Source: a bacterium
GTDB lineage: Bacteria; Krumholzibacteriota; Krumholzibacteriia; Krumholzibacteriales; WJIX01
Assembly: GCA_014730075.1 (NCBI GenBank)
Contig: WJIX01000240.1
Span: 1-33,609, forward strand
Direction of reading: 5' to 3'
Length of the DNA stretch: 33,609 nucleotides
Positions 4,736 through 24,114 of the stretch are shown piece after piece. A model generated the notes under the pieces. The model worked only from the letters and a program-made list of their open reading frames with translations, searched no databases and was not told the DNA's origin. The number at the start of each line of letters is the position of its first letter. Position 1 is the first letter of the stretch. A program made the position numbers and the translations under genes.

Positions 4736-5863
4736 TCAGTTGCTCAGGGTCATCATTACCCGGATAGCCTCCTCGAAATCACTCCTGGTGATAACTCCCA
4801 GAAGACTCCCCTGGTTATTTACAACCGGGTATGATTCATACTTCCGGGCATTGATCAGATGAAAGACCCTTGCCGGGGAGCTGCTCAACCCTATCACATA
4901 ATCGGTAAGATTGGTGTTGATAACATCCTTTACTTCCAGCTCGGGCCTCTTCTCCGGATCAATCTTCTTGACGTCGCCGATAGTGACTATACCCAGCATT
5001 CTCCCATCAGAGACTACCGGGAAGAAATAGGAGTGGTACTTCTCGAAATATTCATCCATCAGGGTCTGCAGATCCATGGTCAGGCCTACCGTAACCACAT
5101 TCTTCCTGACCAGATCCGAGATATCAAGCCTCTTCATAACCTGGTGGTAGAGGATGGCTCCGTAACTTCTAATCGCTGCCTGCCTCAGAAAGGTACCTAT
5201 TATCATCAGCCAGATCCCGCCGATGAAGTTTCCGTAGAATATCAGGCTGAAGAGGCCGAGTCCTATGAGAAAAAGCGCGAAGTACTTGCCTATCCTGCTG
5301 GCTATATCGGTCGCCCTTACGATATTCTTCTTTCTGTACCAGATAATCGCCCGCAGGATCCTGCCCCCGTCCAGCGGAAAGCCGGGGACCATATTAAACA
5401 GGAAGATTACTATATTTATATAGACCAGCGATTCGAACAGTACCGACAGAGCCCGGATGGAGCGAAAAAGCAGAGAAAGCAGGAAGAACAGACCTGCCAG
5501 GACAAGGGTCATGGCCGGCCCGGCTGATGCCATTTTCAGCTCCACCACCGGGTCCTCCACCTCGTTCTCCATGTGGGCGACTCCACCGAACATGAACAGG
5601 GTTATCTTTCCTATAGGAAGGCCATTTTTCTTGGCCACCAGCGAATGGCTGAACTCGTGCAGCAGGATGGAAAGGAAGAGAAAAAGGGAAGCGAAGAAAG
5701 CCATTATCCACAGCTGGGTGGTTGAAAAGATCCCGGGATAGCTCTCCGAGTAGAACCCCGTGGCGAAACTCCAGGTCATCAGTACCAGTATGACCAGCCA
5801 GCTGATATGGACCTGTACCGGTATGCCCCAGAGTTTGAAAAGGTGAAGAGACCTCTTAAACAT
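4736..5863 (-). CDS. Site-2 protease (peptidase M50) with tandem C-terminal CBS domains
   Basis: HEFSH zinc motif, FNMVPGFPLDGGRILRA, multiple TM helices and two CBS repeats (FPVVSDGRMLGIVTIGD; YPVVNNQGSLLGVITRSD). Confidence 0.93.
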   Translation of the reverse strand: MFKRSLHLFKLWGIPVQVHISWLVILVLMTWSFATGFYSESYPGIFSTTQLWIMAFFASLFLFLSILLHEFSHSLVAKKNGLPIGKITLFMFGGVAHMENEVEDPVVELKMASAGPAMTLVLAGLFFLLSLLFRSIRALSVLFESLVYINIVIFLFNMVPGFPLDGGRILRAIIWYRKKNIVRATDIASRIGKYFALFLIGLGLFSLIFYGNFIGGIWLMIIGTFLRQAAIRSYGAILYHQVMKRLDISDLVRKNVVTVGLTMDLQTLMDEYFEKYHSYFFPVVSDGRMLGIVTIGDVKKIDPEKRPELEVKDVINTNLTDYVIGLSSSPARVFHLINARKYESYPVVNNQGSLLGVITRSDFEEAIRVMMTLSN

Positions 5864-5884: not shown

Positions 5885-6256
5885 TCAGGAAGATGGCTGC
5901 AGCTCATCCTCGCTGTAATAACCGGAGAAACGGTTGGATTCGTCGACTCTGATGAAGAGGGGGTACCTCCGGTCCTCGGTCCACGCGAAGGTCATTATAT
6001 CCACGGCATCGCCCTCCTTGACCAGGTGCGCGGCAGCTCCGTTCATACAGATAACCCCCGAACCACGCCTGCCCTTAATCACGTAGGTCTGTAATCTGTT
6101 GCCATTGGTCCTGTCCACCACCAGCACATTCTCCTGCTCGCTCAGGTCAGCCTTCTCGATGAGGTCTTCATCTATGGTTATACTACCCACGTACCTCAGG
6201 TCCGCCTGGGTAACCCTGGCGTTCATTATCATTGACTTGAGTACGAGTCTTTTCAT
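5885..6256 (-). CDS. panD: Aspartate 1-decarboxylase (PanD) family pyruvoyl proenzyme, divergent at Lys9, His11 and Ile86
   Basis: Colinear with PanD from ATG 6256 (GAGGT RBS). It keeps the YVG|SITID cleavage site, NGNRLQTY (R54/T57/Y58) and MNGAAAH (N72), but has KSMIM instead of KSKIH. Confidence 0.85.
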   Translation of the reverse strand: MKRLVLKSMIMNARVTQADLRYVGSITIDEDLIEKADLSEQENVLVVDRTNGNRLQTYVIKGRRGSGVICMNGAAAHLVKEGDAVDIMTFAWTEDRRYPLFIRVDESNRFSGYYSEDELQPSS

Positions 6257-6352: not shown

Positions 6353-8068
6353 TTACAGCTTCATCCCCTCTATCTCGGTAAGATAACGCACGAAATGATT
6401 ATCTTCGTCAACCAGGATATTGCTGAAGTTGCCGCCCGTCTCGCTGGACCAGGTAAAGGCCATGATCCCTATCTCGTCGCCCTCCCGGATATGGTTTGCC
6501 ACCGCGCCGGAGGCAACCATCCTGCCGGAGCCCGGCCTGTCGGACACCGCAAAAGTCTCCAGCCTGGCCCCGTTGGTAGCATCCACTATCAGGATCTTCT
6601 CATACTGGTCGATATTTGCAAGTTTCATGATCTCCCCGTCTATCCTCAGGCAGTCGCTCATCTCCGGCTCGGTCCCGGTGATACTGGCCTTGTGGACCTT
6701 TGACTTGATTACCAGCCTGTCAGTGGTATCGGAGATGATGAACTTGGATTTGCCGGCGGGAGTCAGAGGTATCTCAGTGACTATCAGGAAGTTTACATGC
6801 ATATTGGCACCGCAGCAGTCCGATATCTTCTTCCTGAGGATACCGGTATTTTCATCTTTCCACCCCTGTTCCGGAACGATCCTGAAATCTATGGAGTTGA
6901 GCGCCTTCTGCTCTATCTGGAACCTCCTGATCCCGGGGACTGACCTGGACAGGCTGGTCCAGAAGAAACCGCCCACCGATTTTCCGTCCGGTGTCCTTAT
7001 GTTATCAAAGCTCCTGCCCTCCACCCGCTCCAGCAGGGGCAGCCCCCTGCCGCACTCGCATTTACGCCCGGCGGCTACAGCCACGTCCCCGGTCCGGTAA
7101 CGTATAAACGGCATGTACATATTCATCAGGTCGGTTACCACTATCTCACCCGCCTCCCCCGGACGGGCCGGCCTCCCCTCCTTATTTATCAGCTCCACCA
7201 GGTGTAGATCAGAGGCGATATGCAGGCCTCGATGCTCCTGGCACTCGAAGGCGACATCGGCAAACTCCCTGCTGCCGTAACTGTTATAGATCGGGGCGTT
7301 GAAGACCTCCTCAATCAGTTCTCTCTGCTTGGGATACAGGGTCTCCCCGCCTGTCACCACCGCCTCCGGCTTATGCAGGTTTATTGATTTCCTCCTGCAG
7401 TAACCGGCGAACTGGACCAGCGCGGATGGGTACCCGATTATCAGTTCAGGCTTGAAGGAGCGTTCCATGGCCGCGTATTTCTTCATCCTCGAATCAGACA
7501 TATCGAAAGTTGATATCAGCCTGGTATTATTGAAGTAGCTCCTGACTCTCCTGATTATACGTTCCTTCAGGCTCAGGTCCATATCCACACCCCAGAATTT
7601 CAGCTCCCTGGTACCTATATCAATCCCGGCTATCCGCAGCTGCCTCAGACGGTTGGCCCTCCGGAAAGGTATGGCGGCCCGGTCACAATAGAAATAGAGC
7701 GGAGCGCCGGTAGACCCGCCGGTACTGGAGGGATAACCGTTGCGAAGAGGGTCTCCGGTAATCAGCGACCGGGAATTGTCTTTTATCACATTCCTGGTCA
7801 GGTATGGTATCTTACGGAAATCATCCATATCCGAGATCTGGCGGACATTTATCCCCCTCCTCTTGAACAGCTCGCGGTAATAAGGAACATGAACTGACAC
7901 CTGTCTGAGAAGTTCCTGAAGCCTTCTCCACTGGAGGTCCTCGATTTCCCCGCTGGAGAGATACTGGTTGCCCTCCAGCTCCTCCAGGATAGCCAGGATC
8001 CGGTCCCTCTTGAATCCCCGGTAGATCGGATAGATCACATTTCTGACAAATGACGGAATCAGCGGCAT
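6353..8068 (-). CDS. PaaK/CapK-type (phenylacetate-CoA ligase-like) adenylate-forming enzyme fused to a C-terminal PanD-like domain
   Basis: ANL motifs VPYYRELF, STGGSTGAP, YGSREF, PFIRYRTGD, VEGRSFD and LTPAGK. The last ~123 aa (6353-6724) align to PanD: KSKVH, IVDATNGARLET, GSG, GDEI. Start placed at ATG 8068; the ORF caller gives 8089. Confidence 0.88.
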   Translation of the reverse strand: MPLIPSFVRNVIYPIYRGFKRDRILAILEELEGNQYLSSGEIEDLQWRRLQELLRQVSVHVPYYRELFKRRGINVRQISDMDDFRKIPYLTRNVIKDNSRSLITGDPLRNGYPSSTGGSTGAPLYFYCDRAAIPFRRANRLRQLRIAGIDIGTRELKFWGVDMDLSLKERIIRRVRSYFNNTRLISTFDMSDSRMKKYAAMERSFKPELIIGYPSALVQFAGYCRRKSINLHKPEAVVTGGETLYPKQRELIEEVFNAPIYNSYGSREFADVAFECQEHRGLHIASDLHLVELINKEGRPARPGEAGEIVVTDLMNMYMPFIRYRTGDVAVAAGRKCECGRGLPLLERVEGRSFDNIRTPDGKSVGGFFWTSLSRSVPGIRRFQIEQKALNSIDFRIVPEQGWKDENTGILRKKISDCCGANMHVNFLIVTEIPLTPAGKSKFIISDTTDRLVIKSKVHKASITGTEPEMSDCLRIDGEIMKLANIDQYEKILIVDATNGARLETFAVSDRPGSGRMVASGAVANHIREGDEIGIMAFTWSSETGGNFSNILVDEDNHFVRYLTEIEGMKL

Positions 8069-8585: not shown

Positions 8586-10055
8586 TTGAGTGGATACACA
8601 CTGAGAAAACATGCCTTCATCCTGTTTGTGGGAAAGTTCCTGGCTACCGCCCTGATGTTTGTGGTTCCGCTGGTACTGGTAAGGGTTCTCTCCAAGAATG
8701 AATTCGGGATCTACAAGCAGGCAATGCTCCTGGTAACGTTCTTCACCTCCATGCTCCAGTTCGGGATCACCCAGTCCCTCTATTTCTTCTACTCGCATGG
8801 GGATGACAACAGGAAGCTGATATCCCAGACCTTCTATATCTTCCTTTTCATCGCCGCCCTCTTCTTCCTGCTGTACTGGGCCTTTTCAGGATATATCCCT
8901 TCGCTGATAAAGGGGCTGGATACTCAGGGGGTGATCAGGAACACCGGGATCTACATAGGGCTCTTCTTTCTCACATTCTTCTTCGAGACCCTGCTGATAC
9001 TGGAACGGCAGCCGAAGAAACTGCTGCTGTTTCTGGTACTGGACAACAGCGCCAGGACAGGATTTGCCATAATCTTCGCCTTTATATATAACGATGTCTC
9101 CATGATCCTTTTCGGCCTGATTCTATACGGGCTGATCAAACTCGCCGTGGTAGTGATATATCTGTCGGCCAATTACGGTTTCCCCATGGGTATGAGGGGG
9201 ATCAGCCGGGCGGATGTGATGAAGCAGGTCAGGTATGCCGTCCCCCTGGGAGGTGGCAGGCTGATCGGAGATATAGGAAGGAAAGCGGACAGGTTCATAC
9301 TGACCGCCTTCCTGAGCGCCTCCGGTTACGCGGTATACACGGTTGGCACTCTCAGAATGCCTCTGGATATAGCCTATCTCTCCATCGGGAATACAGCCCT
9401 TCCCAGGATCACCGAGTACTACAGGGAGGGGCGCAAAGACCTGATGGCGCAGCTCTGGCACAAGGTGATCTTTTACTACTGCCTGTTCACCATCCCCATC
9501 GTGATATTCTGCGAGGGGTTCGCCGATGAGATCATCACCTTCCTCTTCACCGACGAATATATCGAGGCTGCGGCGGTATTCAGAGTTTATGTACTGATAT
9601 ATCTCGGTTATATGATGGCCCGCGGATCCATACTGAAGGCAAGCAACAATACCAGGTACGCCTTCAGCGCCAATCTCTACTCCATGATATCGGGAGTTGC
9701 GCTGGGGATAGTGCTGATCAGGTATTTTGGTATTATGGGAGGTGCCGCCTCCGCCGTTCTGGCCTCCTCGGTCAATGTTTTCTATCAGGTCTATAAATCA
9801 AAGAAGATACTCAACCTCTCATTCGGGAAGTGGCTCCCCTGGAAGAGGATGATCATTATCACACTCCTGTCGGCCGCCGCCATGGTTCCAGCCCTGGGGA
9901 TCAGGCTGCTTACAGGAGGGAACATATACAGATTAATGGCTGGATTCGCAATATACTCGCTGGTCCTGATACCGCTGATGAACTGGTTCAGGCTTATCAG
10001 TATCTCCAGTATCACGTCTAAGATCAGAGAGAAGATAGAGGGAGTCAAGAGATGA
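8586..10055 (+). CDS. Wzx-type oligosaccharide flippase / polysaccharide biosynthesis export protein (MOP superfamily)
   Basis: About 12-14 TM helices, N-terminal PLVLVRVLSKNEFGIY, and YAVPL...DRFILTAFL...YAVY. TTG start. Confidence 0.85.
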   Translation: MSGYTLRKHAFILFVGKFLATALMFVVPLVLVRVLSKNEFGIYKQAMLLVTFFTSMLQFGITQSLYFFYSHGDDNRKLISQTFYIFLFIAALFFLLYWAFSGYIPSLIKGLDTQGVIRNTGIYIGLFFLTFFFETLLILERQPKKLLLFLVLDNSARTGFAIIFAFIYNDVSMILFGLILYGLIKLAVVVIYLSANYGFPMGMRGISRADVMKQVRYAVPLGGGRLIGDIGRKADRFILTAFLSASGYAVYTVGTLRMPLDIAYLSIGNTALPRITEYYREGRKDLMAQLWHKVIFYYCLFTIPIVIFCEGFADEIITFLFTDEYIEAAAVFRVYVLIYLGYMMARGSILKASNNTRYAFSANLYSMISGVALGIVLIRYFGIMGGAASAVLASSVNVFYQVYKSKKILNLSFGKWLPWKRMIIITLLSAAAMVPALGIRLLTGGNIYRLMAGFAIYSLVLIPLMNWFRLISISSITSKIREKIEGVKR

Positions 10056-10825
10056 TAATAGTTCTTCTGGGAATGCATAAGTCGGGAACCACTCTGCTGT
10101 CCAGGATGCTTCATGAATCGGGGATCAATATGTGCGAGGACCCCACCCGGATCAGTTCCTATGATGCCGGAAACAAATATGAGAGGCTTGAATTCCTGAT
10201 TTACAATACCGCCATGCTGGATATCAGGATATCCACGTTCAGCTCCGACATCGTGGAGACCGCGAACGACCTCTCCATCTCCAGGCACCCCCGGACCCTG
10301 GCCGGGCTGCTGGAAACCAGGATAGAGGAACTGAGCTCCGAGCACCCTGCCTGGGGGTTCAAGGACCCCCGCACCTGCATGACCTACCGCGCCTGGAGGG
10401 AACACCTGCCCCCCCACCGGGTCCTGGTCTCCTTCAGAAATCCATATGAAGTGGCGGCACATCTGACCAGGTCGGTGAGGAATATAAGGATGCTTAAGAG
10501 AATCGGAAGGACCGCCGGCGGGCTTAACTCCTGGTACCTGCACAACCGGAATATCCTGGAGTACTACCGGGAGAACGGCTCTGATTTCTTCTTCATAGAC
10601 TACAACAGATTCATGAGCGAGGAGGGCGACGGATATATTGACAGGATCTCCGAATTCTGCCAGATCGAAATCAGTGACCTGAGAGACAGGGACCTCTACC
10701 GTAACCGGATGGAAACCCTTACCCTGGCTCAGAAGATTGACCGGGGTGTCGGTTCGGTCTTTATCCGTGGAAAGGTGGAGCGGGTATACCGCCAGCTCAG
10801 AGAAATAGAAAGGGCTCAGTTCTGA
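10052..10825 (+). CDS. Sulfotransferase family protein
   Basis: 5'-PAPS-binding loop VLLGMHKSGTTLLSRML, plus WGFKDPRT and FRNPYEVA. ATGA overlap with wzx implies translational coupling. Confidence 0.85.
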   Translation: MIIVLLGMHKSGTTLLSRMLHESGINMCEDPTRISSYDAGNKYERLEFLIYNTAMLDIRISTFSSDIVETANDLSISRHPRTLAGLLETRIEELSSEHPAWGFKDPRTCMTYRAWREHLPPHRVLVSFRNPYEVAAHLTRSVRNIRMLKRIGRTAGGLNSWYLHNRNILEYYRENGSDFFFIDYNRFMSEEGDGYIDRISEFCQIEISDLRDRDLYRNRMETLTLAQKIDRGVGSVFIRGKVERVYRQLREIERAQF

Positions 10826-10953
10826 TCCCCTCTCCCGCAGCAAACGAATCACTGCTTGCCTGAAGATGCGAATAGATATAGAATCCCCCCTTATACAGAT
10901 GAATACAGCCTTCCCTTAAGATATTGCGGGGATTATCCCGGAGAGGAGAAGTC

Positions 10954-12531
10954 ATGAACAGATTCAGAAAGATCATATTAATCATACCGCTGGTAATGAT
11001 AATATCACCGATTCTTGCCGGAACAGGGTTCGCCTGCACTACATTCATCGCCGGGAAGGGAGTTACCGCGGACGGCTCCATCCTCTTTGCCAAGACGGAG
11101 GATGACTCCGGCATTTACAATGATTACCTCTGGTACATTCCCCCGGGAGAGCATGAAGAGGGGGATACCATAAAGCTGGTGGGCGGAGGCAGCATACCCC
11201 AGGTGGAGAAGACCTACGGCTACTTCTGGGACCAGCCTCCCGGCACCGAGTACTCCAACGCGGTTGTCAACGAATGGGGTCTGGCGCTCGGAAGCGATGC
11301 CTGCCCATCCCGGGAGGATTCCATAGAAGAGGTCCGGCGGCGCGGGGATATCACGGAAGGGGGGATAGGGTGGCGGCTGAGGATTATCCTGGCCGAGAGG
11401 TGCAAAACCGCCAGGGAGGCGGTAGAGCTTGCCGCCCGGCTCCTGGACAGGTACGGTTACCGGGGATCAGGACGCACCCTTAATATTGTGGGCAGGGAGG
11501 AAGCCTGGATGCTTCAGATGGTCAGGGGCAGGCAGTACGTGGCCCGCCGGGTCAGGGATGACGAAGTTATCCCCCTGGCCAACACCTATACCATCCGCCA
11601 GGTAGATATGGACGACCGCGACAATTACCTCTGCTCGCCCCGCCTGATCAGCTACGCCGAAGAACGTGGCTGGTATGACCCCGGCTCTGACGGAGAGTTC
11701 GACTTTGCCAGGGCTTATGCTTCGAGCAATACCCGCACCGACCCCAGAAATACCCGCAGGCAGTGGATAATCGCGAAGATGGTCGATCCCGGATTCCCTC
11801 TCACCGTGGAGGAGGCGGACGCCGGAAAGATGCCGGTATCGGTCAAACCGGCCCGTGAGATCACTCTGGGCGACGCCATGGAGATAATGAGGTCGCATTA
11901 CGAGGCGACCTCACTGGATGATTCCGGGGGATACCAGAGCTCACCCCATCGCAACAGCAGCCGCCCGATCTGCACCTACAGGAGCCACCGGACTACCGTA
12001 ATCCAGCAGAGGGAAGATATGCCCCGTGAGATCGGTACGGTGATCTGGAGGGCACTCTATCAGCCCTGTACCAGCTGTTTCGTGCCCTGGTACCTCTGCG
12101 CCACCGATATACCGAAACCGTTCCAGGCTGTGCGCCCCCCCGCCCCGGAGCAGGACCTCCATGATTATCATTTCAATATGCCCTCTTCGGTAAATGAATT
12201 CGATATCAGCTCGGCCTCCTGCCTCTTCGGCCTGATGGCCAACCTGGTGGATACCGATTACGGCAACCTGATAGATTATGTACGGGGCCGGTGGGAAGAG
12301 TTCGAGAAATTCCAGTTCGATATGCAGGGCCCGGTGGAGAAGACAGCTCTGAAACTGTACCGGGAAGACCGTGATGCGGCTCTTCGTTACCTCAGCGACT
12401 ATTCACGCTCCCGCGCTCTCAGGTCCCTGGAGGTGGCCGAATCGATGGTAGAGGTTCTTAAAACCCGGCTCTGGAAGGCAGAGCATGGGAAGAAGTTCGA
12501 ACCGGCCCGGGAGGGCCGGCAGGGACTTTAG
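10954..12531 (+). CDS. Exported C69 family dipeptidase (Ntn-hydrolase, secernin/PepD-like)
   Basis: Signal peptide followed by CTTFIAGKGVTADGS (N-terminal nucleophile Cys), VNEWGL, AERCKTAREAV, FDFARAY and MRSHYE. GGAGAGGAG RBS before ATG 10954. Confidence 0.9.
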   Translation: MNRFRKIILIIPLVMIISPILAGTGFACTTFIAGKGVTADGSILFAKTEDDSGIYNDYLWYIPPGEHEEGDTIKLVGGGSIPQVEKTYGYFWDQPPGTEYSNAVVNEWGLALGSDACPSREDSIEEVRRRGDITEGGIGWRLRIILAERCKTAREAVELAARLLDRYGYRGSGRTLNIVGREEAWMLQMVRGRQYVARRVRDDEVIPLANTYTIRQVDMDDRDNYLCSPRLISYAEERGWYDPGSDGEFDFARAYASSNTRTDPRNTRRQWIIAKMVDPGFPLTVEEADAGKMPVSVKPAREITLGDAMEIMRSHYEATSLDDSGGYQSSPHRNSSRPICTYRSHRTTVIQQREDMPREIGTVIWRALYQPCTSCFVPWYLCATDIPKPFQAVRPPAPEQDLHDYHFNMPSSVNEFDISSASCLFGLMANLVDTDYGNLIDYVRGRWEEFEKFQFDMQGPVEKTALKLYREDRDAALRYLSDYSRSRALRSLEVAESMVEVLKTRLWKAEHGKKFEPAREGRQGL

Positions 12532-12541
12532 AAAGATCTCT

Positions 12542-15500
12542 CTACTCCAGGCAGGAGAACCATCCGCCCTCATGAATGATTATTTCATCCGGGCGCGAGA
12601 CCGGACCGGTAATCCGGTATTGGTATTCGGCGTCGATCCTCATCCGGCAGGTTGCTACCCCGCCGGGGATTCCCAGCTTCAGGAAAGGGCCTGAGTAGCG
12701 GGCAAAGTAATATGGTGATGGGACTTCCTCAGGTATCTTTATACTTCCTGCGTATCCCCCGGTGGGCAGAAAGAGAAACAGCTTCCGGTCAAAGAAATTA
12801 TTACGGCAGATTATCACCCCCCTGTCAGAAAGGGCGCTGAGCCTGAACGGCACCTTCATGCCATCATTTACCGCCGCTTCCAGCCCCGACGCGGGCACAA
12901 AGCCCGCCCTGCCCCCCTGGTTGATCATCAGACCCCTGTCCGGGTCCCACGCCGTTATAACGGTTCTCCGGTCCATTCCGCATACTGCGATAAGTGCGGG
13001 ATTGATGCCGGTTTCCATCCTCTCCGTGAATATTTTCCGCTCCGGGTGATAGATTATAATCAGGCCTCTGTCCCCGTCAGATATATACAGCAGATCTCCA
13101 TCCGAAGCGATATCGGAAGGTGTTAATCCATAGCTGCCCAGGTCCAGGATACGGCCGGGACCTTCCTCCGACGAGATCTCGAGGACTTCCCGGTTGTTAT
13201 TATCAAAAGCGAATACCCTTTCCCCGCAAACGGCGAATTCACTTATATTCCTGAGCGGATTGCCGGGAGAGGGCCTTGCTATCCTCTCGGCTCCGTCCAG
13301 GAAATAGCGGACCCCCGCCGGCCCGATCTTTACCTGCCGGTCACCGTAGAGAAATACAGGGTTTCCCCCTGCCACCTCCTCCATGGAGCATTCTCCGGCG
13401 TAATCAAGATATGCCGGATTCATTCTAACCTCTATCGTTTCACCGGACACCCGGAATACTCTCTCTGCTACCGAGGGTAGAAAACCTCTTCCGGAAAAGA
13501 CGAAGATATATCGCTTGCCGCTCCGCAGGCCCATGAGCTTCCGCACCGGCCCCTGGTATATCACCGTATTCAGATCGCTCATTACGGTGAGGTTGATATC
13601 TGACAGCGCCGCTCCGGCTACCTCAATATTGACCCTGACATCATCGCGCAGGTAGGCGAACTCCGCCGGCCCGCGCAGTCTATCCCTGTTCTGCATCTTA
13701 ACTGACCATGGATGAAGAAGGGTGGGCGGCTGCACACAGGCGCTCCAGAGCTCAAGTGAGCGCTCCAGCTGATCGAGGATCAGCCCGCGGGTAAAATTGC
13801 CTTCACTCTCGCCGGCTCTCAGCATATCGTACCTTACGCAGAGAGGGCCTATCTCCGGGCCGGAACATTCCGCCCCTGCAGCTTTCTTTTCCCAACCGGC
13901 TTCTCTGAGAAGCGGGAGCATCCAATTCATTCCATCTGCTGCCTCTGTCAGGCAGGCGCTCCGGGCCAGAAGATTGTGGTCTGCACCCTCCCTGGCCTGG
14001 TAACCGATTATATAAGCGGCCCTGGGATCTACCGAACTGATCCGGCTCAATTCCTCCCTGGACCGGTCCAGGAACCTTCCCCTTACCTGTCTTTCCATTA
14101 CCGCCCGGTAATACCTGGCCTCATTCCGGTAACGGGCGGGCCAGTGATCTATCCGGTCACCGGCCAGTATCTCTTCCAGCACCCTGTCCAGGGCATCGCG
14201 GTTGTCCGGAGAGCCGTTTCCGTCGGTGTCTCCCAGGGGGGCCGAGTTGATCAGGGAGAATGCCCGGAGGAGGGATAGCTCGGCTTCGGCCTCATCACCC
14301 GGTGCCGGCATCCTGTCCCCGGCAACCCTGAAAAGCATATATGCCGCGGTGTATAGAATTCTTCTCTTTCTCTCCTGTGAACTGCTGAGCCTGGGAATGC
14401 AGTTGGCCATGGTCATGGCTGCGGATCCTGCCTTTCTGCATTCTTCACTGCTGCAGGCCGCACTGTAACGTGATAGCAGAAATTCAAGATTCGATTCGGA
14501 GGGGAATCTCTTCCCCGACCGGCTGCCTTTATCCGCCAGCGGCATCATCCGGGAGAGAAGCTCCAGCCACCTGTACTCCGGCCTATCCGGAATCGCCCTT
14601 CCCGGCTGCTCCGCTGACAGAATATCACAGTAGGCCCTTCGGAGGTGCCGGCGGTGTGACAGAACCGAATCGATTCCGCCGCCGTTGACACTCCGGGGAC
14701 TGCTTCTGAAGAGACCGGCGGGCAGATTCTCCAGCAGGCGGCTGCCGGAGAAGAATTTATTCTTGTCCTTCTGAAGATAGCCGTTCATCGCGGACAGGTC
14801 GCTCCAGAGTCTCGCCTCCCCGGTCAGCCCTCCCGCTCCGCCGGCAGGAAGATTGGCTATCAGGGCCCTGCTGGCTATGATAATATCACTGCGGCCCCCC
14901 TCCAGCCGGTCGATATCAAGCCCGCCGAAGAGATTGAATCTTCCGGCCAGCTGTTCCTGATTAAGGCGGGCGAGCTCCCCCCTGTTTTTGTCGATCCACT
15001 GATTTACCCTTCCCGCCGCCCTCTGAAGGAGCGAAAGATCCGCCAGGTACCTGGCCTGCCCTGCTGCCGGAGTACCCTCCAGCTTTGCGGCCACCTGCTC
15101 AGCATACTCCCTTATCTTCGCAAATTCAGAATCCAGCTGTTCCATAGTCATTCTCTCCAGGGCGGGTATCCCCGCCGGGAGCTGACCGGAACCGGGCTGA
15201 TCCTCACTTTTCATAAAGTGGTAAGCTCTGGCTAAACGGGCTTTCAGCCACCTGCTATAGAGGTGGTAGAAATGAGCGGCCTTCCCCACAGCTTCCCGTA
15301 ATTTCAGACCTGCGAATATCTCTTCCGCTTCGGAGGCCGCGCGGTATCCCTCCCCGCTCGGCATGAGCGAATCAAGTGCCTCCTTAGCCCTGGCCAGGAC
15401 CGCGTAACCGCGCAGGAACCGGCGCTGGTACTCCAACCCACGGCTGTCAGGCCGGTCCAGGATCTCAAGCGCCCGATCCAGCCCGGCAGCTTCTCCCCCG

Positions 15501-15964
15501 CTGTGGTATGAGCGTATTCCGCACCAGGCCACCATATACGCGGCAAAATCCTTCTTGGCCGGATCCAATCCAGATTCCCCGCTAAGGCTGACTTCCCGGA
15601 ACAGCTTGGCTGCGACGGCAAAATCGGCAGCCTCGCCTGTGGCTATTCCCCTGATATAATAGAGATATGCCTGGATATATTTCAGGGTCCAGACCTGGTA
15701 TTCGGAGAGGCGCCCCGCTGACGAAAGAACACTGTCCAGCTCTGATATCCGTACCTCCATATCCGCTTCCGGAACCCTGGACGGGTCCTCCACGAAGGAG
15801 CCGACCATCCTGACCGATCTCTCCATAACCCCGGAGATATCCTCCTGGCATAAAGCGGAAGTGCCCGTAAGCAGGGAACCCGCCAGAATGATGCTCATAA
15901 CCGCCATCCGGAAAAACCGTGTGGCATTGCCGGCAGAGTTGGTATTCAGTTCCCTCAATATCAT
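12542..15964 (-). CDS. Large exported hypothetical protein: alpha-helical (TPR-like) region, PEGA/Ig-like domain, C-terminal NHL-like beta-propeller
   Basis: Signal-like N-terminus. Helical repeats with AxY/F motifs (YIQAYLYY, AAYMVAW, EARYYRA). A beta domain near 13415-13650. Propeller blades such as PSDIASDGDLLYISD and VFAFDNNNREVLEI. Last gene of the operon. Confidence 0.6.
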   Translation of the reverse strand: MILRELNTNSAGNATRFFRMAVMSIILAGSLLTGTSALCQEDISGVMERSVRMVGSFVEDPSRVPEADMEVRISELDSVLSSAGRLSEYQVWTLKYIQAYLYYIRGIATGEAADFAVAAKLFREVSLSGESGLDPAKKDFAAYMVAWCGIRSYHSGGEAAGLDRALEILDRPDSRGLEYQRRFLRGYAVLARAKEALDSLMPSGEGYRAASEAEEIFAGLKLREAVGKAAHFYHLYSRWLKARLARAYHFMKSEDQPGSGQLPAGIPALERMTMEQLDSEFAKIREYAEQVAAKLEGTPAAGQARYLADLSLLQRAAGRVNQWIDKNRGELARLNQEQLAGRFNLFGGLDIDRLEGGRSDIIIASRALIANLPAGGAGGLTGEARLWSDLSAMNGYLQKDKNKFFSGSRLLENLPAGLFRSSPRSVNGGGIDSVLSHRRHLRRAYCDILSAEQPGRAIPDRPEYRWLELLSRMMPLADKGSRSGKRFPSESNLEFLLSRYSAACSSEECRKAGSAAMTMANCIPRLSSSQERKRRILYTAAYMLFRVAGDRMPAPGDEAEAELSLLRAFSLINSAPLGDTDGNGSPDNRDALDRVLEEILAGDRIDHWPARYRNEARYYRAVMERQVRGRFLDRSREELSRISSVDPRAAYIIGYQAREGADHNLLARSACLTEAADGMNWMLPLLREAGWEKKAAGAECSGPEIGPLCVRYDMLRAGESEGNFTRGLILDQLERSLELWSACVQPPTLLHPWSVKMQNRDRLRGPAEFAYLRDDVRVNIEVAGAALSDINLTVMSDLNTVIYQGPVRKLMGLRSGKRYIFVFSGRGFLPSVAERVFRVSGETIEVRMNPAYLDYAGECSMEEVAGGNPVFLYGDRQVKIGPAGVRYFLDGAERIARPSPGNPLRNISEFAVCGERVFAFDNNNREVLEISSEEGPGRILDLGSYGLTPSDIASDGDLLYISDGDRGLIIIYHPERKIFTERMETGINPALIAVCGMDRRTVITAWDPDRGLMINQGGRAGFVPASGLEAAVNDGMKVPFRLSALSDRGVIICRNNFFDRKLFLFLPTGGYAGSIKIPEEVPSPYYFARYSGPFLKLGIPGGVATCRMRIDAEYQYRITGPVSRPDEIIIHEGGWFSCLE

Positions 15965-15977
15965 CAGCTCCTCTCTC

Positions 15978-16691
15978 CTATAGATTGATAAAATCGTCGG
16001 AGACGAAATCCTTGAATCTCTTATTGTATTTCCTGTATATCCTGTCGGTCCCCTCGGTGAAATTTACCGTGGGAGGCCGCCAGGGGTTGCGGTAGATCAC
16101 CGGTATCAGGTTGACGGCATGCCTCCCCACTCCGGTGGGCCCATAGAATACGCTTCCCGAGCTGCTTCTGATCCCCTCTATTTCCGTTACATTTATGGCG
16201 GTCCTTCTCGATTCCGGGTAGAAAACCACCTCGAATCTGAAACTCTCTATGGGGCATACGTAATAATCTTCCAGCGTGTTTATCCACTGCTCGACCGCTT
16301 TCTTAAGTCCGGGCGGAGCCTTTTCAGGGAGTTCGAAATAAATCTCCAGCTCCCGGTAATCCCTGTTCACCACCTCAACGGAGAGGCATATGGAGGACCC
16401 TATTCCTGAAAACTCCCTGAGCTCGGTGACCGGCATTTTCTCGTAATCCCGTACATGGGGATGGACCACTACCGGACCTCCCAGCAGGTTGATTCCGGCG
16501 GTCCCGAATTCCTCCCGGTCATAGATGGAGCTGTATTTGAAGACTGGCCGGGTATTTATCTCGGCAGGCAAAAACGAGAAGATCAGAACGGCCGCCAGGA
16601 CCGCTCCCGCGATTGCGGGGACGAACCTTACCAGCTGCCTGACAGATCTCTCCAGGTATATCGCTCCCTTTTCCTTCATGAAATCAGCCAT
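15978..16691 (-). CDS. Single-pass membrane protein with periplasmic domain; possible divergent TonB-like energy transducer
   Basis: One N-terminal TM (FVPAIAGAVLAAVLIFSFL). It lies directly after exbD, overlapping it by 8 nt. Weak TonB_C-like segment (CLSVEVV...PPGLKKAVEQW...FEVVF). The function is inferred from position. Confidence 0.45.
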   Translation of the reverse strand: MADFMKEKGAIYLERSVRQLVRFVPAIAGAVLAAVLIFSFLPAEINTRPVFKYSSIYDREEFGTAGINLLGGPVVVHPHVRDYEKMPVTELREFSGIGSSICLSVEVVNRDYRELEIYFELPEKAPPGLKKAVEQWINTLEDYYVCPIESFRFEVVFYPESRRTAINVTEIEGIRSSSGSVFYGPTGVGRHAVNLIPVIYRNPWRPPTVNFTEGTDRIYRKYNKRFKDFVSDDFINL

Positions 16692-17325
16692 CTTTTCTGA
16701 TCACCCTGCCTTCCAGGTCCAGGTTTACCATGCTCAGGCGGTGGAGGAGCTGGTCGATCGAATCCATGGTAATCACCTCATGCCTGGAGACCCCTTCCTT
16801 TCTGCAGACCCTGATCACCCGGTGCACGGAAGAGAACCTTTCGCCACCACCGCATAGAATTACCGCCCTGTCCGGGTTGTTCCTTCTCAGGGACTCGGCC
16901 AGGTGTTCGGGGTTCTGGTACAGGCCGCTCTCCACCAGAAAGTAATCCAGCCTCATCCTGATATCATCTATCTTTGACTGGATACTTCCTCCCCCTTTCA
17001 GTATCCGCTCGATCTCTCCCGAAAGCCCTTCAAAATCAAGGTCGGGGCTGTGTGAATTGGCGGCCCCGCTCATCTGGAGATAGCAGGTCCTGGAGAGACC
17101 GCCGCTTCCAACCGGGAGAACCGCTATAAGAGCCTTTCCCCCCGCCTTATGCCGGCTGTCCATCATTTCGATACCATAGGTACCCTCCAGGTCTTCGCTG
17201 CCGCCCAGGGCCGCTGAAATATTAAGGGTAACCAGGAAGAATATCAGAAGAAGAAAAATCACGTCGATAAGTGGCACCAGCTCGATTCTTCTTCTTGATT
17301 CACCTGTCTCGAGGTTACTGCCCAT
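16684..17325 (-). CDS. exbD: ExbD/TolR family biopolymer transporter subunit (copy 2)
   Basis: IELVPLIDVIFLLLIFFLV with the essential TM Asp. C-terminal AVILCG...FSSVHRVIRVCRKEGV ExbD-like fold. Confidence 0.82.
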   Translation of the reverse strand: MGSNLETGESRRRIELVPLIDVIFLLLIFFLVTLNISAALGGSEDLEGTYGIEMMDSRHKAGGKALIAVLPVGSGGLSRTCYLQMSGAANSHSPDLDFEGLSGEIERILKGGGSIQSKIDDIRMRLDYFLVESGLYQNPEHLAESLRRNNPDRAVILCGGGERFSSVHRVIRVCRKEGVSRHEVITMDSIDQLLHRLSMVNLDLEGRVIRKDG

Positions 17326-17357
17326 TTATATCCTGTCCTCCATATATTTACTTATCC

Positions 17358-18071
17358 TTATACCTTCATGGCGTGAATCCGTATCCCGCCGATATCCACA
17401 CCCCTTCTCTCCAGAACCCGGAAAGCCGACTTGACAAAGAACATATACATATCCTCCGGCATCCTGATGTGGATCCCCGGACTGTCCCCGCCACCTATCA
17501 ATCTACTCATCGAATTGATCTTTCGCTCCAGCTCCTCTTCCTCCCGCTGGCTCAGGGCCCGGGGAGCAGCCGGCAGAAAATCGGGATAGAACAGGAAGAG
17601 TTCCCTGGCTTTTTCAATTATCAGTTCACCGGACATACCCTCTTCCAGCTTCCTTATCAGTCCCTCCGCGCTCTCCCTGAAGCCTGATATATCGGAATAT
17701 CCCAACCCCCCGCATACCGATACCATGAATCCATCCTCGGGGACCGGCTGAAAAACTCTCTCCATTCCAAGCTTCGCTGACAGCTCCATGAACGAACTTC
17801 TGAGATCCTCTATCATATCCCTTTTCATCCCATTCCCTTCGGCCAGGTCGAAGACATCGATCATAAGATAGCTCCCCTGAATCCTGTTGGGATTCTCAAT
17901 CACCGGCAACCTGGACTGCTGCTCTCCCTTTCCTTCGCCGGTATTGCCGCTTCCCAGGTTGGTAGACATGGTCACCAGAAAGAATATCAGGAGAATGAAT
18001 ATTATGTCGATCAGCGGGGTCTTGCCCGGCTCTCTTCTTGATATCCTGGTATTCATCGAAAATCTGTTCAT
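17358..18071 (-). CDS. exbD: ExbD/TolR family biopolymer transporter subunit (copy 1) with enlarged periplasmic domain
   Basis: TPLIDIIFILLIFFLVT with the essential Asp. ATG 18071 lies 1 nt after the stop of the upstream exbB. The ORF caller's start at 18182 overlaps exbB. Confidence 0.8.
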   Translation of the reverse strand: MNRFSMNTRISRREPGKTPLIDIIFILLIFFLVTMSTNLGSGNTGEGKGEQQSRLPVIENPNRIQGSYLMIDVFDLAEGNGMKRDMIEDLRSSFMELSAKLGMERVFQPVPEDGFMVSVCGGLGYSDISGFRESAEGLIRKLEEGMSGELIIEKARELFLFYPDFLPAAPRALSQREEEELERKINSMSRLIGGGDSPGIHIRMPEDMYMFFVKSAFRVLERRGVDIGGIRIHAMKV

Positions 18072-18072
18072 A

Positions 18073-19395
18073 CTAAATCCTACCCCCCGCGGCGGCTCTA
18101 GCCAGACTCTCCTCAGATTTCTTCTCCACTCCGGATTCGGGCGAAACTGTACCCTCCCGGATGATATAATCTTCCTGCACAACCTGCGTGAGTGTATTCT
18201 CCACCGCGGAATCCACCCTGAGGGCGATCCTGGATCTTCTGAACTGAATCAGGTAGTAGAAAAGAAGAAAGAGTATCCCAACTATCAGGCCGAAAACGGT
18301 GGTGTTCAGAGCCAGATGGATCCCGCCGGAGAGATTCTCCAGCACCGCCCTGTTCTGCCCGGTTACAATAGTTTTTATCTTCAGATAGAGCCCCCCGAAA
18401 GAGTCGGAGATACCGATCACCGTGCCCAGGAGTCCCACCATCGGAGCCAGTACCCCGAAGCAGCGGATCATCTCTGCCGAGATCACCCAGCTCAACATCC
18501 TCCCCCCAGGTTCCAGCTCCCGGCTGAGCTGCCTGTTAACCCCCGAGTACATCCTGCTTCTCAATCTTTCGAGCTCGCGGCAGTTTCTGGCCGAATCGGC
18601 GCCGCCGGGATTCGAATGCAGCCTCCTGCGGTACTCATCCACGCCGGCCCTTATCTCCATCCGACTGAGCACAGGACATCCCTCCGTGGCCCTCTGCGCC
18701 TCCTCCAGCCCATCCGCATCCTTCACCTTTTCTGATGCGGCCGCCAGGTTCTCGAATTCACTCCCGTATAACCGGCGAAGGTGAACGTAAACGCTGAAAA
18801 GCCCCCATATAAGAATAATTATCAGGAGCGAGGCGATAACCCCTCCGTCGGAAACCGTCCTCCGGAGGCCAGCCAGGTTCTCCCGCACCGCTTTCCTGCT
18901 GCCCGGATATACCGTATCAGGCCTGGCCGTTATCTCCGCGGTCCCCAGCATGGGATCGCGGTTAAATCTTCTGCTGAACGGAGCCGATATGTCTCGATAT
19001 TCACCGCTTTCTTCCAGGGATACCGAAGCTGAAACGATCTCGCCCCGGTTGATGGTAAAATCGCCCAGGGATCTTCGGATCTTCAGATCACCTGAGTTTC
19101 CGACCGGGGACCCGTTGAAATAAACCGTGAAGGAGCACCCTTCCGGCTTCCGGATATCCCGGAAAAGAGGCTGGGCGAGGTCACCGCTCTCAATCTCCCG
19201 CCAGTTAAGGACCTCTTTGAGCTTCCACTCCAGCCTCAGCACACCGCTCCCGTCATTACGTTCGATTCCGGCATTGGTAATCTCCACTACGCAGTCCCTG
19301 CCCGCCCCTGAAGGTGATCCCGGCAGGGCCGCGAGCAGGATGGCCGCGAGAATCAAGCCCCCGGCCAATCCCTGATTTCTTTTTGATCTTCTCAT
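18073..19395 (-). CDS. MotA/TolQ/ExbB proton channel family protein with N-terminal exported beta-rich domain
   Basis: Motifs APMVGLLGTVIGI and LSGGIHLALNTTVFGLIVGI. Signal peptide and ~150-aa extracytoplasmic domain precede TM1. Confidence 0.88.
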   Translation of the reverse strand: MRRSKRNQGLAGGLILAAILLAALPGSPSGAGRDCVVEITNAGIERNDGSGVLRLEWKLKEVLNWREIESGDLAQPLFRDIRKPEGCSFTVYFNGSPVGNSGDLKIRRSLGDFTINRGEIVSASVSLEESGEYRDISAPFSRRFNRDPMLGTAEITARPDTVYPGSRKAVRENLAGLRRTVSDGGVIASLLIIILIWGLFSVYVHLRRLYGSEFENLAAASEKVKDADGLEEAQRATEGCPVLSRMEIRAGVDEYRRRLHSNPGGADSARNCRELERLRSRMYSGVNRQLSRELEPGGRMLSWVISAEMIRCFGVLAPMVGLLGTVIGISDSFGGLYLKIKTIVTGQNRAVLENLSGGIHLALNTTVFGLIVGILFLLFYYLIQFRRSRIALRVDSAVENTLTQVVQEDYIIREGTVSPESGVEKKSEESLARAAAGGRI

Positions 19396-19400
19396 CCCGG

Positions 19401-20981
19401 CTACGCCTCGTTGGTTATATCCACTATAAAGTTCTCTATGCTTGCCGCTTTCTTGCTGATGGTATTCTTGAACAGGTAGTACATGGTGAATGAAAGTATA
19501 CCCAGCACCAGCCCCACTATGGTGGTGGAGAGAGCGACATTGATCTCCCCTGAAAGCTCACTAATTATCTTGCTCTGGCTGTGAAGCCCGCCCAGTTTGC
19601 CAAAGGCGGTGGATATTCCCACCACGGTCCCGAACAGCCCTACCAGAGGGCTGATGCTGCCAATAGTCCAGAGTTTGTCCACAATCCTGTTCCTGCGGTC
19701 CACCTTGGTAACGATGACCCTGTCTATGGCCCTGTCTATCTCCTGAGAGGCCCACCAGTTATTCTGGTTGATCAGGTGGTTGTGCAGGCCGGCCTTGAGT
19801 ATCTCGAAAAGATCGAATCTCCTGTCAGCGATACCGCTGATGATCTCCTTGATCCTGGGCCTGGCATAGTCGTGCCATTCCCCGCGGGAGTCCGGGCCGG
19901 TGCAGATATCGGCAAAATCTTTCATATCATCCACTTCGACTCTCACCCTCTTCTCTTCCTGCCCGGTTATATCGTTACCGGAGCTGGCGGCCAGGCGTTC
20001 CACGTCCACCGATTTGCCCAGCACCTCTTTCACGAAGGGATAGTCAACAGCTTTCCTGATGATCTCCCCGGCACTTAGTTCCCGGCCTTCCCGGAGTCCG
20101 GCAACGAACTGCCGGATCTGCTCCTTCTGGGGGTCGGCCGCGCCGGTCTTCAGAATGATGCTGACCCAGCGGGCTCTCGCATCGGCCACCTTCCCGCCGA
20201 ACATCTGATTTACATCGGTAAATGGTATTATCCCGGCCAGCCGGCTGTCACCCGGTGACCAGGCGCTCATTGATGATTTTATGGCGCTGTAGAGAAACCA
20301 GAGAAACAGCAGGAATATCACCCCGAACACATACTGGAAAAGGTGCTCGTAGTGGTCCATATTATGCCAGATGGTGTAGACTATCTCCCCGATACCCTTG
20401 CCCGCAGGTTTTCCCATGGAGGGGGGTATCTCAGTCAATTCTATTCTCCCGGCATTAATCCCTCTTGCCGCCACCAGCCGGGATGGCCGGTCATGAGGCA
20501 ACTGGTATCCCTCCCTGAGGGAGGTCATTGCCCTGGCGCTGATCTCTATCCTGGGCCTTCCCTCACCCCTGCCCGGCTTGACCACCGTGAAATCAAGATA
20601 ATTGGGGCCGGCTCCGGGGTCCACGGCACCACCGGTGTAATTCCAGCTGTCCACAATCCCTGATACGTATTCCCACATCTCAGCGGGTCCGCTGCGCAGG
20701 CTCTCTACCAGAATGGCAGTCCTGTAAACATCACCGCTTTCTCCAATATAGGCCCGGACTGTTACACGCCCCGGACTCATTGAATTCAAATCCAATTCAT
20801 CCTGCGCGGGAGGGTCCAGCCTGAAATCCGCGGCTGCCAGGCCGGAGGACTGAACAACTAATATCGCCGTCAGAACCAGCGGCACCAGAACCCGGGTGTA
20901 AACTCGCGTCGTTTTCATCTTAACCTGCCTTCTCCGATTCTCAGCGGCCCGCCGTACCGGCTTTCTGACCCGCGGCATCAT
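19401..20981 (-). CDS. MotA/TolQ/ExbB proton channel family protein with N-terminal exported domain and enlarged cytoplasmic domain
   Basis: Motifs SPLVGLFGTVVGI and LSGEINVALSTTIVGLVLGI. Signal peptide, then TM1 YVFGVIFLLFLWFLY. Alternative start at ATG 20918. Confidence 0.88.
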   Translation of the reverse strand: MMPRVRKPVRRAAENRRRQVKMKTTRVYTRVLVPLVLTAILVVQSSGLAAADFRLDPPAQDELDLNSMSPGRVTVRAYIGESGDVYRTAILVESLRSGPAEMWEYVSGIVDSWNYTGGAVDPGAGPNYLDFTVVKPGRGEGRPRIEISARAMTSLREGYQLPHDRPSRLVAARGINAGRIELTEIPPSMGKPAGKGIGEIVYTIWHNMDHYEHLFQYVFGVIFLLFLWFLYSAIKSSMSAWSPGDSRLAGIIPFTDVNQMFGGKVADARARWVSIILKTGAADPQKEQIRQFVAGLREGRELSAGEIIRKAVDYPFVKEVLGKSVDVERLAASSGNDITGQEEKRVRVEVDDMKDFADICTGPDSRGEWHDYARPRIKEIISGIADRRFDLFEILKAGLHNHLINQNNWWASQEIDRAIDRVIVTKVDRRNRIVDKLWTIGSISPLVGLFGTVVGISTAFGKLGGLHSQSKIISELSGEINVALSTTIVGLVLGILSFTMYYLFKNTISKKAASIENFIVDITNEA

Positions 20982-23073: not shown

Positions 23074-24098
23074 TTCAGTACTGCTACCTTGCATTTATAA
23101 TCTCTTTCTCCCTCTATCACGCAGATATATCCTCCATTTGACACTATCCTGCCCCTGCCGTTTCTTCCATCCCATGAGATCTCGTTCCAGCCGCGCCCTC
23201 CATTGTCCGATTTCTTCAGGACCAGGTTGCCGAACCTGTCATACAGATAAACAGTCACCCTGCGGGGCCCGTTCAGCCTGTAGACAATATTTGCTTTCTC
23301 TCCCCTTTCCGGATTGAACGGATTGGGATAGCAGTGGGCTCCCTGCTCATACATTATTTCTGTCCGTAATGGAGTGCTGCGGTTGCCCGCCCGGTCAACC
23401 AGGCAGGTATAGAGGACCTTGCGCTCGTAACCGGCTGATAACCTGTAGCTGACCGAACCGGAGAATGAGCCAGAGGGGTAATCTCGAACCACCCCGCTGA
23501 AACTGCTGTCTCTTTCAGCCAGCCGGATCAAATCGCATCCGCTGCTGTTGGCATTGTCCCAACCCTGGTAATCTATCTCTATTTCCGGCCTGGAAACCCA
23601 GACCCCACCCCCGGCCGAACCGTTAACGGCCAGTGATATAATCTCCGGAGCGGTGGTATCAGCCACCGTACTGACGGTCTCCGCCGAGGGGGATATCCTT
23701 CCCTGTTCATCCACCGAATAAACCCGGCAGTAGACCGTATCCTCCACGGAGAGATGCACCGAGCAGGAGCTGATTCCGGAATCCCACAGGCTGCAGGTCA
23801 GTACCGTATCGAAATCTTCTGAATCTGAAGAGACCACCCAGTAGTGGGCTATCTCCCCGTTTATTTCCGGTTCCCAATCTATCTCGATGCTGCCCAGGTG
23901 ACCGGTATAGGGATCCAGCTCACTGACAGAAGGAGCGGGAAGCAGGTGGTTTACCTCGAATGAATCGGGGGGAAGACAGACCAGGGGGCCGAGAAGCAGG
24001 CTCCGGCCGGGAGATCTCTCCTGACAGAAGCTCGCTGCAGCCAGCCCGGCAAGGACTGCCATTATTAATAACATAATCAGGAAGCAATTCTTTCTCAA
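23070..24098 (-). CDS. Exported Ig/FN3-like protein with C-terminal FlgD-Ig / T9SS-type sorting domain
   Basis: Signal peptide MRKNCFLIMLLIMAVLAGLAAA (TTG 24098, AGGAG 9 nt upstream; ORF caller gives 24107). Motifs DTTAP and VDRAGN. Tail CYPNPFNP...WDGRNGRGRIVSNGGYIC...KVAVLK. Confidence 0.8.
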   Translation of the reverse strand: MRKNCFLIMLLIMAVLAGLAAASFCQERSPGRSLLLGPLVCLPPDSFEVNHLLPAPSVSELDPYTGHLGSIEIDWEPEINGEIAHYWVVSSDSEDFDTVLTCSLWDSGISSCSVHLSVEDTVYCRVYSVDEQGRISPSAETVSTVADTTAPEIISLAVNGSAGGGVWVSRPEIEIDYQGWDNANSSGCDLIRLAERDSSFSGVVRDYPSGSFSGSVSYRLSAGYERKVLYTCLVDRAGNRSTPLRTEIMYEQGAHCYPNPFNPERGEKANIVYRLNGPRRVTVYLYDRFGNLVLKKSDNGGRGWNEISWDGRNGRGRIVSNGGYICVIEGERDYKCKVAVLK

Positions 24099-24114
24099 AA
24101 CGGTCAACTCCTTG

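Follow-up and report, generated by a model that had tools for sequence, protein, structure and literature searches.

What does a domain of the PanD family do at the end of an adenylating ligase? PanD, the pyruvoyl-dependent aspartate 1-decarboxylase that makes β-alanine, is a homotetramer, and each of its active sites lies between two subunits. In the window, that is, the whole stretch of 33,609 nucleotides analyzed here (positions 1 to 33,609 of contig WJIX01000240.1, GenBank assembly GCA_014730075.1, from a bacterium of the order Krumholzibacteriales), one gene encodes a PaaK-type ligase that runs directly into a PanD-like domain (referred to as F), and the next gene downstream encodes a stand-alone PanD (referred to as S). 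The original prediction, made before S was recognized, regarded the fused domain as the decarboxylase of a decarboxylase-ligase channel. As far as their sequences tell, F and S are two degenerate PanD paralogues with complementary defects, and we lean, with modest confidence, toward the proposal that they complement each other as the two halves of one hetero-oligomeric aspartate decarboxylase, tethered to the ligase. Both the hetero-oligomer and the substrate of the ligase are matters that we infer from sequence comparisons and the literature.

The fusion gene and its ligase part

The fusion gene was read from the ATG at position 8068 (Table 1). An in-frame TTG at 8089 lengthens the product to 578 residues within an uninterrupted open reading frame (ORF; 6353 to 8089, minus strand), and the closest relatives, with 571-573 residues, match the ATG start; residue numbers below are those of the 578-residue form unless otherwise stated. 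As originally predicted, the translation contains a single continuous ORF with intact ligase motifs, the linker IISDTT, and a PanD fold. The motifs, the names of which we take to be those of the ANL core (P-loop TGGSTG, YGSxE, RYRTGD, and a C-terminal Gly-Lys), were STGGSTGAP (residues 122-130), YGSRE (271-275), RYRTGD (330-335), and an A10-type Gly-Lys (446-447). Their forms in the window were the commonest among 91 full-length relatives. In an alignment of 92 full-length proteins, Gly446 and Lys447 were conserved in at least 98% and at least 90%, respectively.

The N-terminal 450 residues matched PDB entry 4r1l in phmmer with an E-value of 3.6e-38. An AlphaFold2 model of the fusion protein, with 45 relatives as input, had a mean predicted local distance difference test (pLDDT) value of 86.6, which fell to ~62 around residues 440-450 of the 571-residue model, near the linker. 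In Foldseek, the best matches were BT_0428 (4r1l/4r1m) and PaaK1/2, with E-values of ~1e-28 and template modeling (TM) scores of 0.65-0.68 on the target; 2-hydroxyisobutyryl-CoA ligase, NatL2, AjiA1, and ClxA were also found in the top set, which as a whole ranged from 1e-28 to 1e-20. The ligase part has the two-domain ANL fold, similar to that of solved PaaK enzymes. Solved members of the family (4r1l, 2y27, 2y4o, HCL 6hdw, NatL2 6siw, AjiA1 6wuq, and ClxA 9s3l) have the same fold and core motifs at 16-26% identity to the ligase; they differ in that, among the matches listed, their 401-499 residues are too short for an extra C-terminal domain. The ligase reached none of the NCBIfam equivalog cut-offs (PaaK, 87.7 against 646; FlxY, 134 against 520; DVU_1553, 138 against 300; F390 synthetase, 70.6 against 459), and is, by sequence, a member of the PaaK family without an assigned equivalog or substrate. 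Relatives of the fusion protein are named "phenylacetate-CoA ligase" or "aspartate 1-decarboxylase" in databases; on its own, it is probably neither of these enzymes.

The combination of a PaaK-like ligase with an Asp_decarbox domain, which the original prediction proposed to look for, was not peculiar to this assembly: PF02261 stood behind the ligase in 106 of the best 120 clusters at 90% identity, mostly of 571-573 residues, and the source metagenome-assembled genomes (MAGs) belonged to Krumholzibacteriota, Latescibacterota, and Eisenbacteria. The closest genome record was a Candidatus Krumholzibacteriales MAG (78% identity). Present in over 100 independent assemblies, the fusion is real, and neither a misassembly nor a lost stop codon. 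When 151 genomes of the phylum were scanned, matches running through the PanD part were found only in the order of the window (4 of 5, 31 of 33, and 1 of 1 genomes of families f1, f2, and f3, respectively, among the matches listed), and 29 other genomes of this order gave a fused frame of full or nearly full length. The other 111 genomes contained unfused paralogues of 28-38% identity and, among the matches listed, none extended beyond query residue 485. The fusion is confined, among the genomes scanned, to one Krumholzibacteriales-like order. Thirteen unfused ligases of 450-454 residues were 55-60% identical to the ligase part, which is closer than some of the fused forms.

The fused domain lacks the decarboxylase center

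A match to Pfam family Asp_decarbox (PF02261) covered residues 459-565 and scored 74 bits, above the gathering score of 25 (E-value of 1.2e-20), and the last 128 residues aligned without gaps to PanDs in PDB (E-value of 4.7e-15), such that PanD residue n corresponds to residue n+455 of the fusion protein. F in the window keeps Lys9 (K464), His11 (H466), Arg54 (R509), and Thr57 (T512), and these were present in 105, 104, 104, and 95, respectively, of 105 F sequences. Gly24-Ser25, the site of pyruvoyl formation, is replaced by Asp24-Cys25 (D479-C480), Tyr58 by Phe58 (F513), and Asn72 by Ser72 (S527). With the pyruvoyl-forming site, the proton donor Tyr58, and Asn72 all gone, F is, by its sequence, not a decarboxylase; it is predicted to be catalytically dead because of Asp-Cys at the cleavage site, Phe58, and the lack of Asn72. 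The role of decarboxylase in a channel, originally assigned to the fused domain, was not borne out.

That F is nevertheless an active decarboxylase, perhaps processed at Cys25 and feeding the ligase in cis, appears extremely improbable. Its homology to PanD is clear, Lys9, Arg54, and Thr57 for substrate binding are retained, and an N-to-S acyl shift is possible at cysteine in principle. On the other hand, Asp24 was found in 103 of the 105 sequences and position 25 was not fixed (Cys in 87, Gly in 10, and Ser in 7); Tyr58 was changed to Phe in 94, and only one contained Asn72, the residue by which Ser25 is held in the zymogen according to a passage of PMC3975893. The score of F against the NCBIfam equivalog TIGR00223 (56.8 bits) was also far below the cut-off of 106.

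The original prediction allowed for a C-terminal domain in decay, with a ratio of non-synonymous to synonymous substitutions (dN/dS) near 1. Instead, the Nei-Gojobori estimates for F were 0.017-0.25 in nine of ten close pairs (dS was saturated in the other), comparable estimates being 0.048-0.156 for the ligase (10 pairs) and 0.016-0.142 for S (9 pairs; 0.033 for L006/L007, calculated with the exact ORFs). The mean frequency of the top residue among 92 full-length proteins was 0.691 in F and 0.696 in the ligase. F is under purifying selection and is not decaying.

A protein of 148 residues (P0126) was F-like, with Lys9, His11, Asp24-Gly25, and no Tyr58, and had an N-terminal extension of only 33 residues, which may reflect either an F that stands alone or an incomplete gene call.

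The stand-alone PanD

S is encoded 96 bp downstream of the fusion gene on the same strand. The original prediction noted that no panB or panC was nearby, which is correct for the window, since both are side by side on another contig (C14) of the same genome, but it overlooked this complete stand-alone panD. S scored 132.8 bits against PF02261 and 118.9 bits against TIGR00223, over the cut-off. In an ungapped alignment with PanD from Mycobacterium tuberculosis (2c45), S in the window retains Gly24-Ser25, Arg54, Thr57-Tyr58, and Asn72, and has Met9 and Met11 where Lys9 and His11 are expected. The retained residues were invariant in all 32 S sequences compared. Across 38 loci of the order, position 9 was Met in 37 and Val in one, position 11 was Leu, Met, or Val in every case, and the motif YVGSITID was intact in all 38 genes. 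Apart from Lys9 and His11, S passed all sequence tests for a PanD and, as predicted from its intact Gly24-Ser25 site, can still undergo self-cleavage. For annotation, it matters that S clears the equivalog cut-off despite the missing Lys9: both Lys9 and His11 are listed as strictly conserved among aspartate decarboxylases in the relevant passage of PMC3314653.

The genome of the window (82% complete) contained no PF02261 matches other than F and S. As the sole Gly-Ser PanD of this genome, with panB and panC elsewhere, S (with or without F) is a candidate source of β-alanine for pantothenate. The fused PanD fold had been placed outside ordinary pantothenate synthesis; this is probably not the case, given the adjoining Gly-Ser PanD, the panB and panC genes on another contig, and the retention by F of the residues that S has lost. 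When the other genomes of the order (39) were examined, 33 contained exactly two PF02261 matches, namely, F and S, two contained three, three contained one, and one contained none. The single matches were in G127 and G146, in which contig ends are involved, and in G032 (see below). The genome with none (G073) is 90% complete and contains panC. S followed the fusion gene at a distance of ~30-370 bp in 25 of 29 loci, for which a flank of 1.5 kb was searched. Three of the remaining loci are cut short, two by contig ends at 118 and 175 bp past the fusion gene and one after 910 bp; the fourth (G096) is discussed below.

A protein of 125 residues (P0133) has Met9 together with His11 and was a sister of the S clade (support of 0.984); it could represent an intermediate stage in the loss of Lys9 and His11.

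Complementary losses at a possibly shared active site

Lys9, His11, and Gly-Ser were present in every one of 32 PanDs from the sister families f4, f7, and f9 of the class, and each of their genomes contains a single PF02261 match and no fused ligase. No PF02261 match was found in any of the 75 genomes searched from families f5, f6, and f8, and so these relatives obtain β-alanine otherwise or take up pantothenate. Among the best 149 PanD representatives at 50% identity, 120 had the full K-H-G-S-R-T-Y-N signature, and Met9 was found in only two, namely, the S-type representative and its sister P0133; Lys9 and His11 were present in 141 of the 146 representatives aligned without gaps. A census was made of columns conserved at 90% or more in the canonical PanD group. 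Those lost in S and kept in F were K9, H11, and, weakly, E56, while those lost in F and kept in S were Y22, G24, S25, Y58, N72, and some core positions.

These two sets may be compared with the published active site. In a passage of PMC3314653, an asterisk assigns Lys9* and Arg54* to the other subunit, and Pyr25, Thr57, and Tyr58 carry none; there, Lys9* forms an ion pair with the α-carboxylate of the substrate and Tyr58 is the proton donor. An excerpt of PMC6969166 similarly assigns Arg54* to the adjacent subunit, with the backbone of Ala74/Ala75 (unstarred) on the pyruvoyl side. In passages of PMC3975893, malonate bridges Lys9 and Arg54, and the zymogen has its Gly24-Ser25 loop held in place by Thr57 and Asn72. 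From its place two residues along the Lys9 strand, His11 would also be on the neighbor side.

Because Lys9 and Arg54 reach into the pyruvoyl site of the neighboring subunit in solved PanDs, F and S may share an active site. In a normal PanD site, one subunit contributes the pyruvoyl group (from Ser25), Thr57, and Tyr58, and its neighbor Lys9 and Arg54. S would supply the pyruvoyl side (Gly24-Ser25, Thr57, Tyr58, and Asn72), its own neighbor side being defective, and F would supply the neighbor side (Lys9, His11, and Arg54), its pyruvoyl side being lost. In mixed S/F rings, a complete site would form only where S is the pyruvoyl side and F the neighbor side, and every other pairing of subunits would be without either the cofactor or Lys9. 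The conversion of aspartate to β-alanine would then be physically tied to an adenylating ligase of the PaaK type. This proposal draws on what was observed: the fusion and the reciprocal losses, which are restricted to a single clade, purifying selection, and the lack of any other PanD in the genome. A prediction of the S/F complex, run on alignments of 29 rows for F and 32 for S and without controls, gave ipSAE values of 0.08 and 0.08 and bears on binding in neither direction.

Eleven short fused forms (484-508 residues) bear on the relative importance of the two parts. Approximately residues 365-444, which comprise the C-terminal sub-domain of the ligase, are deleted in them; nine also depart from the TGGSTG core of the P-loop, and the terminal Lys is replaced in several. 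The KSKIH strand of F was retained in all 11, and in the genomes with such forms (G049 and G135) the Met9 S gene still adjoins. The retention of the F strand in forms with a degenerate ligase suggests that the role of F outlasts, or is more indispensable than, ligase catalysis.

Several points weigh against a site shared by F and S. The assignment of Lys9 to the other subunit comes from one explicit passage (in PMC3314653), and that of His11 is our own deduction. S keeps Arg54 (32 of 32) and F keeps Thr57 (95 of 105), neither of which is needed by a strictly alternating ring; interfaces between like subunits (S-S or F-F) may therefore play a part as well. In G096, the two genes are truly unlinked, the fusion gene being on one contig and S, still with Met9, on another beside an M50 peptidase gene. 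In G038, a second full-length fused paralogue lacks an adjoining S. In G032 (94% complete, panC kept), an S-type PanD with Met9 and Leu11 is present, and a search of this assembly for a fused ligase or a second PF02261 match found none; a gene for a family 4 glycosyltransferase (GT4) lies directly upstream of S, where the fusion gene would sit. Either S works without F in G032, or F is in the unassembled 6%, or β-alanine is imported; the presence of S without a detectable F argues against strict dependence. The pattern in the clade probably reflects a single evolutionary event, and so the genomes are not independent observations. Lastly, F and S were not shown by the trees to be sister duplicates. 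In a tree of three groups (S, 32; F, 30; canonical, 32) rooted at the midpoint, S grouped with F (support of 0.947), whereas, in a tree with 142 further representatives, the F clade (0.863) and S clade (0.821) were not sisters.

The two fused paralogues of G038 are on contigs C135 (L023) and C148 (L087), and S follows the copy on C135 only. The two trees do not settle whether F is a duplicate of S. A canonical PanD (P0123) that is 46% identical to F has motifs in common with F and with S, which is no more than a hint of a common ancestor.

Some of these points would be expected if F were an oligomerization or ligand-binding module of the ligase, independent of S, and S an unusual homotetrameric PanD without Lys9. 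F homotetramers would gather four ligases and bind an aspartate- or β-alanine-like ligand through Lys9, His11, Arg54, and Thr57 without turnover. S without a detectable F in G032, the unlinked genes in G096, and the additional fused paralogue without S in G038 are all consistent with such a module, as are the retention of Thr57 in F and the invariance of Arg54 in S, which is expected if S-S interfaces are used. However, the loss of Lys9 and His11 from S, only in the clade that bears F, is left unexplained (both are kept in 32 of 32 sisters and in 141 of 146 representatives), and there is no reason why the positions invariant in F are those that S has lost. We know of no active PanD without Lys9, and no paper on a K9A variant of PanD was found in the open-access literature searched. 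We consider an independent module unlikely.

Regulation of S by F is distinctly improbable. F would act as a maturation factor like PanZ/PanM or as a dominant-negative subunit that holds down the synthesis of β-alanine, depending on the ligand state of the ligase (ATP, CoA, or an acyl substrate). There is a precedent in the control of PanD by its CoA-sensing partner PanZ/PanM, as described in passages of PMC4410942 (see also PMC3398536); in addition, members of the ligase family bind ATP and, often, CoA, and on one side the interfaces of F with S would be dead. A role purely as an inhibitor or chaperone, however, does not call for invariant Lys9 and His11 in F and predicts no loss in S, and F is a paralogue of PanD, not a GNAT protein like PanZ.

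Gene neighborhood and possible role of the ligase

The features of the window are listed in Table 1.

Table 1. Features of the locus in the window and their coordinates.
Feature	Position	Strand	Remarks
M50 peptidase with CBS pair	4736..5863	minus	Conserved gene downstream of S
S, stand-alone PanD	5885..6256	minus	123 residues from ATG 6256; GTG 6280 gives 131 residues
Fusion gene	6353..8068	minus	571 residues from ATG 8068; stop at 6353-6355
F domain, non-catalytic PanD-like (predicted)	6395..6715	minus	PF02261; ungapped alignment to 2c45 and 3oug
Linker IISDTT	6722..6739	minus	Six residues (451-456), between A10 strand of ligase and first strand of PanD fold
PaaK-family (ANL) adenylating ligase, both sub-domains	6740..8068	minus	phmmer, Foldseek, and motifs
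Polysaccharide flippase	8586..10055	plus	Divergent from fusion gene
Sulfotransferase	10052..10825	plus	Next after flippase
C69 dipeptidase-family protein	10924..12531	plus	After sulfotransferase; shared with same-genus locus only
Large ORFs (1140, 237, 703, and 345 residues)	12542..15964, 15978..16691, 20983..24107	minus	No Pfam match
ExbB/ExbD-like cluster	16684..20981		Flanked by the large ORFs without Pfam match
1555-residue protein	24115..28782	minus	Pfam: fn3, FlgD-Ig, and weak C-terminal Por_Secre_tail (type IX secretion system sorting)

The original prediction stated that CapK-like ligases occur in capsule and O-antigen loci. A glycan-gene setting was recovered, with the flippase and sulfotransferase in the window and genes for a carbohydrate esterase family 4 (CE4) deacetylase or GT4 upstream in many relatives. 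The context of flippase and sulfotransferase was common only to a locus of the same genus (L005) and the upstream genes vary elsewhere; a conserved glycan operon was rejected. Upstream of the fusion gene in the other loci, a co-directional CE4 deacetylase (PgaB-like, below the cut-off) was found in 18 of 29 and GT4 in 7 of 29, and the remaining genes encode a methyltransferase or are unrelated. G065 has the order GT4, CE4, fusion, S, and M50, and the fusion gene of G096 adjoins a gene for a polysaccharide pyruvyl transferase. The link to glycans is recurrent but not fixed.

On the other side, the M50/CBS gene followed S in 21 of 25 other loci with both fusion and S, and in 5 of 6 further S loci. 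This site-2-protease-like gene stays by S even in G096, where the fusion gene is elsewhere, and in G032, where it was not found. A C-terminus similar to that of the 1555-residue protein was present on a 732-residue protein near the fusion gene in G065.

Our best guess is that the ligase consumes or senses β-alanine or a CoA/acyl compound in the chemistry of envelope glycans. It is a reasonable guess that it adenylates β-alanine, or joins an acid to the amine of β-alanine, for a glycan or other acceptor. Alternatively, by analogy with PanZ in Escherichia coli, one may guess that the decarboxylase is controlled through the sensing of ATP, CoA, or an acyl compound by the ligase.

Comparison with known systems

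F and S are both homologous to known PanDs (PF02261/TIGR00223; 1aw8, 2c45, and 1uhe), S keeps the processing site, and panB and panC are present. The known enzymes have one chain with both half-sites, whereas neither chain is complete here and F sits C-terminally on a ligase of 450 residues.

By analogy, the nearest functional counterpart would be the S-adenosylmethionine decarboxylase (AdoMetDC) of trypanosomatids, which, according to a passage of PMC5201418, depends on a dead, non-self-processing paralogue called "prozyme". Both cases, judging from the sequences, involve a pyruvoyl decarboxylase plus a catalytically dead paralogue, and the two are encoded together here. AdoMetDC has a different fold and is eukaryotic, and its prozyme acts allosterically by relieving autoinhibition, as stated in that source; in the present system, residues are proposed to be shared across the interface, the active partner also appears degenerate, and the putatively dead partner is fused to a ligase. 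The nearest regulatory analogy may be PanD-PanZ(PanM) of Enterobacteria, in which a second protein similarly links the synthesis of β-alanine to a nucleotide/CoA-binding domain (passages of PMC4410942; see also PMC3398536). PanZ has a GNAT fold and binds the C-terminus of PanD, whereas F is expected in the position of a ring subunit; furthermore, PanZ-dependent PanDs keep Lys9 and His11, unlike S.

In the open-access literature searched, no paper was found that joins aspartate decarboxylase, phenylacetate-CoA ligase, and fusion, and nothing relevant to Krumholzibacteria and pantothenate or to a PanD pseudoenzyme was among the open-access papers listed; we found no earlier description of the system there.

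A wider reading, which we regard as quite unlikely, joins these elements. Complementary degeneration would have divided a bacterial pyruvoyl enzyme between two obligate partners, with one of them welded to a ligase, such that the only route of the order to β-alanine and CoA would be gated by the ligand state of the ligase (ATP, CoA, or acyl substrate) or β-alanine would be handed over directly. The "dead" interface between the pyruvoyl side of F and the neighbor side of S, at which the invariant Asp24-Cys25 would face Arg54 of S, might then be put to new use, as a structural salt bridge or a regulatory pocket.

PanD has been treated as a simple, self-contained homotetramer, and is a drug target in Mycobacterium tuberculosis as well as a workhorse for the production of β-alanine. 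If F and S do share an active site, they would provide the trypanosome "prozyme" principle with its first bacterial counterpart and be a clean case of duplication followed by reciprocal loss inside one active site. The tether would also provide a testable handle on an uncharacterized branch of the PaaK family near genes for envelope polysaccharides.

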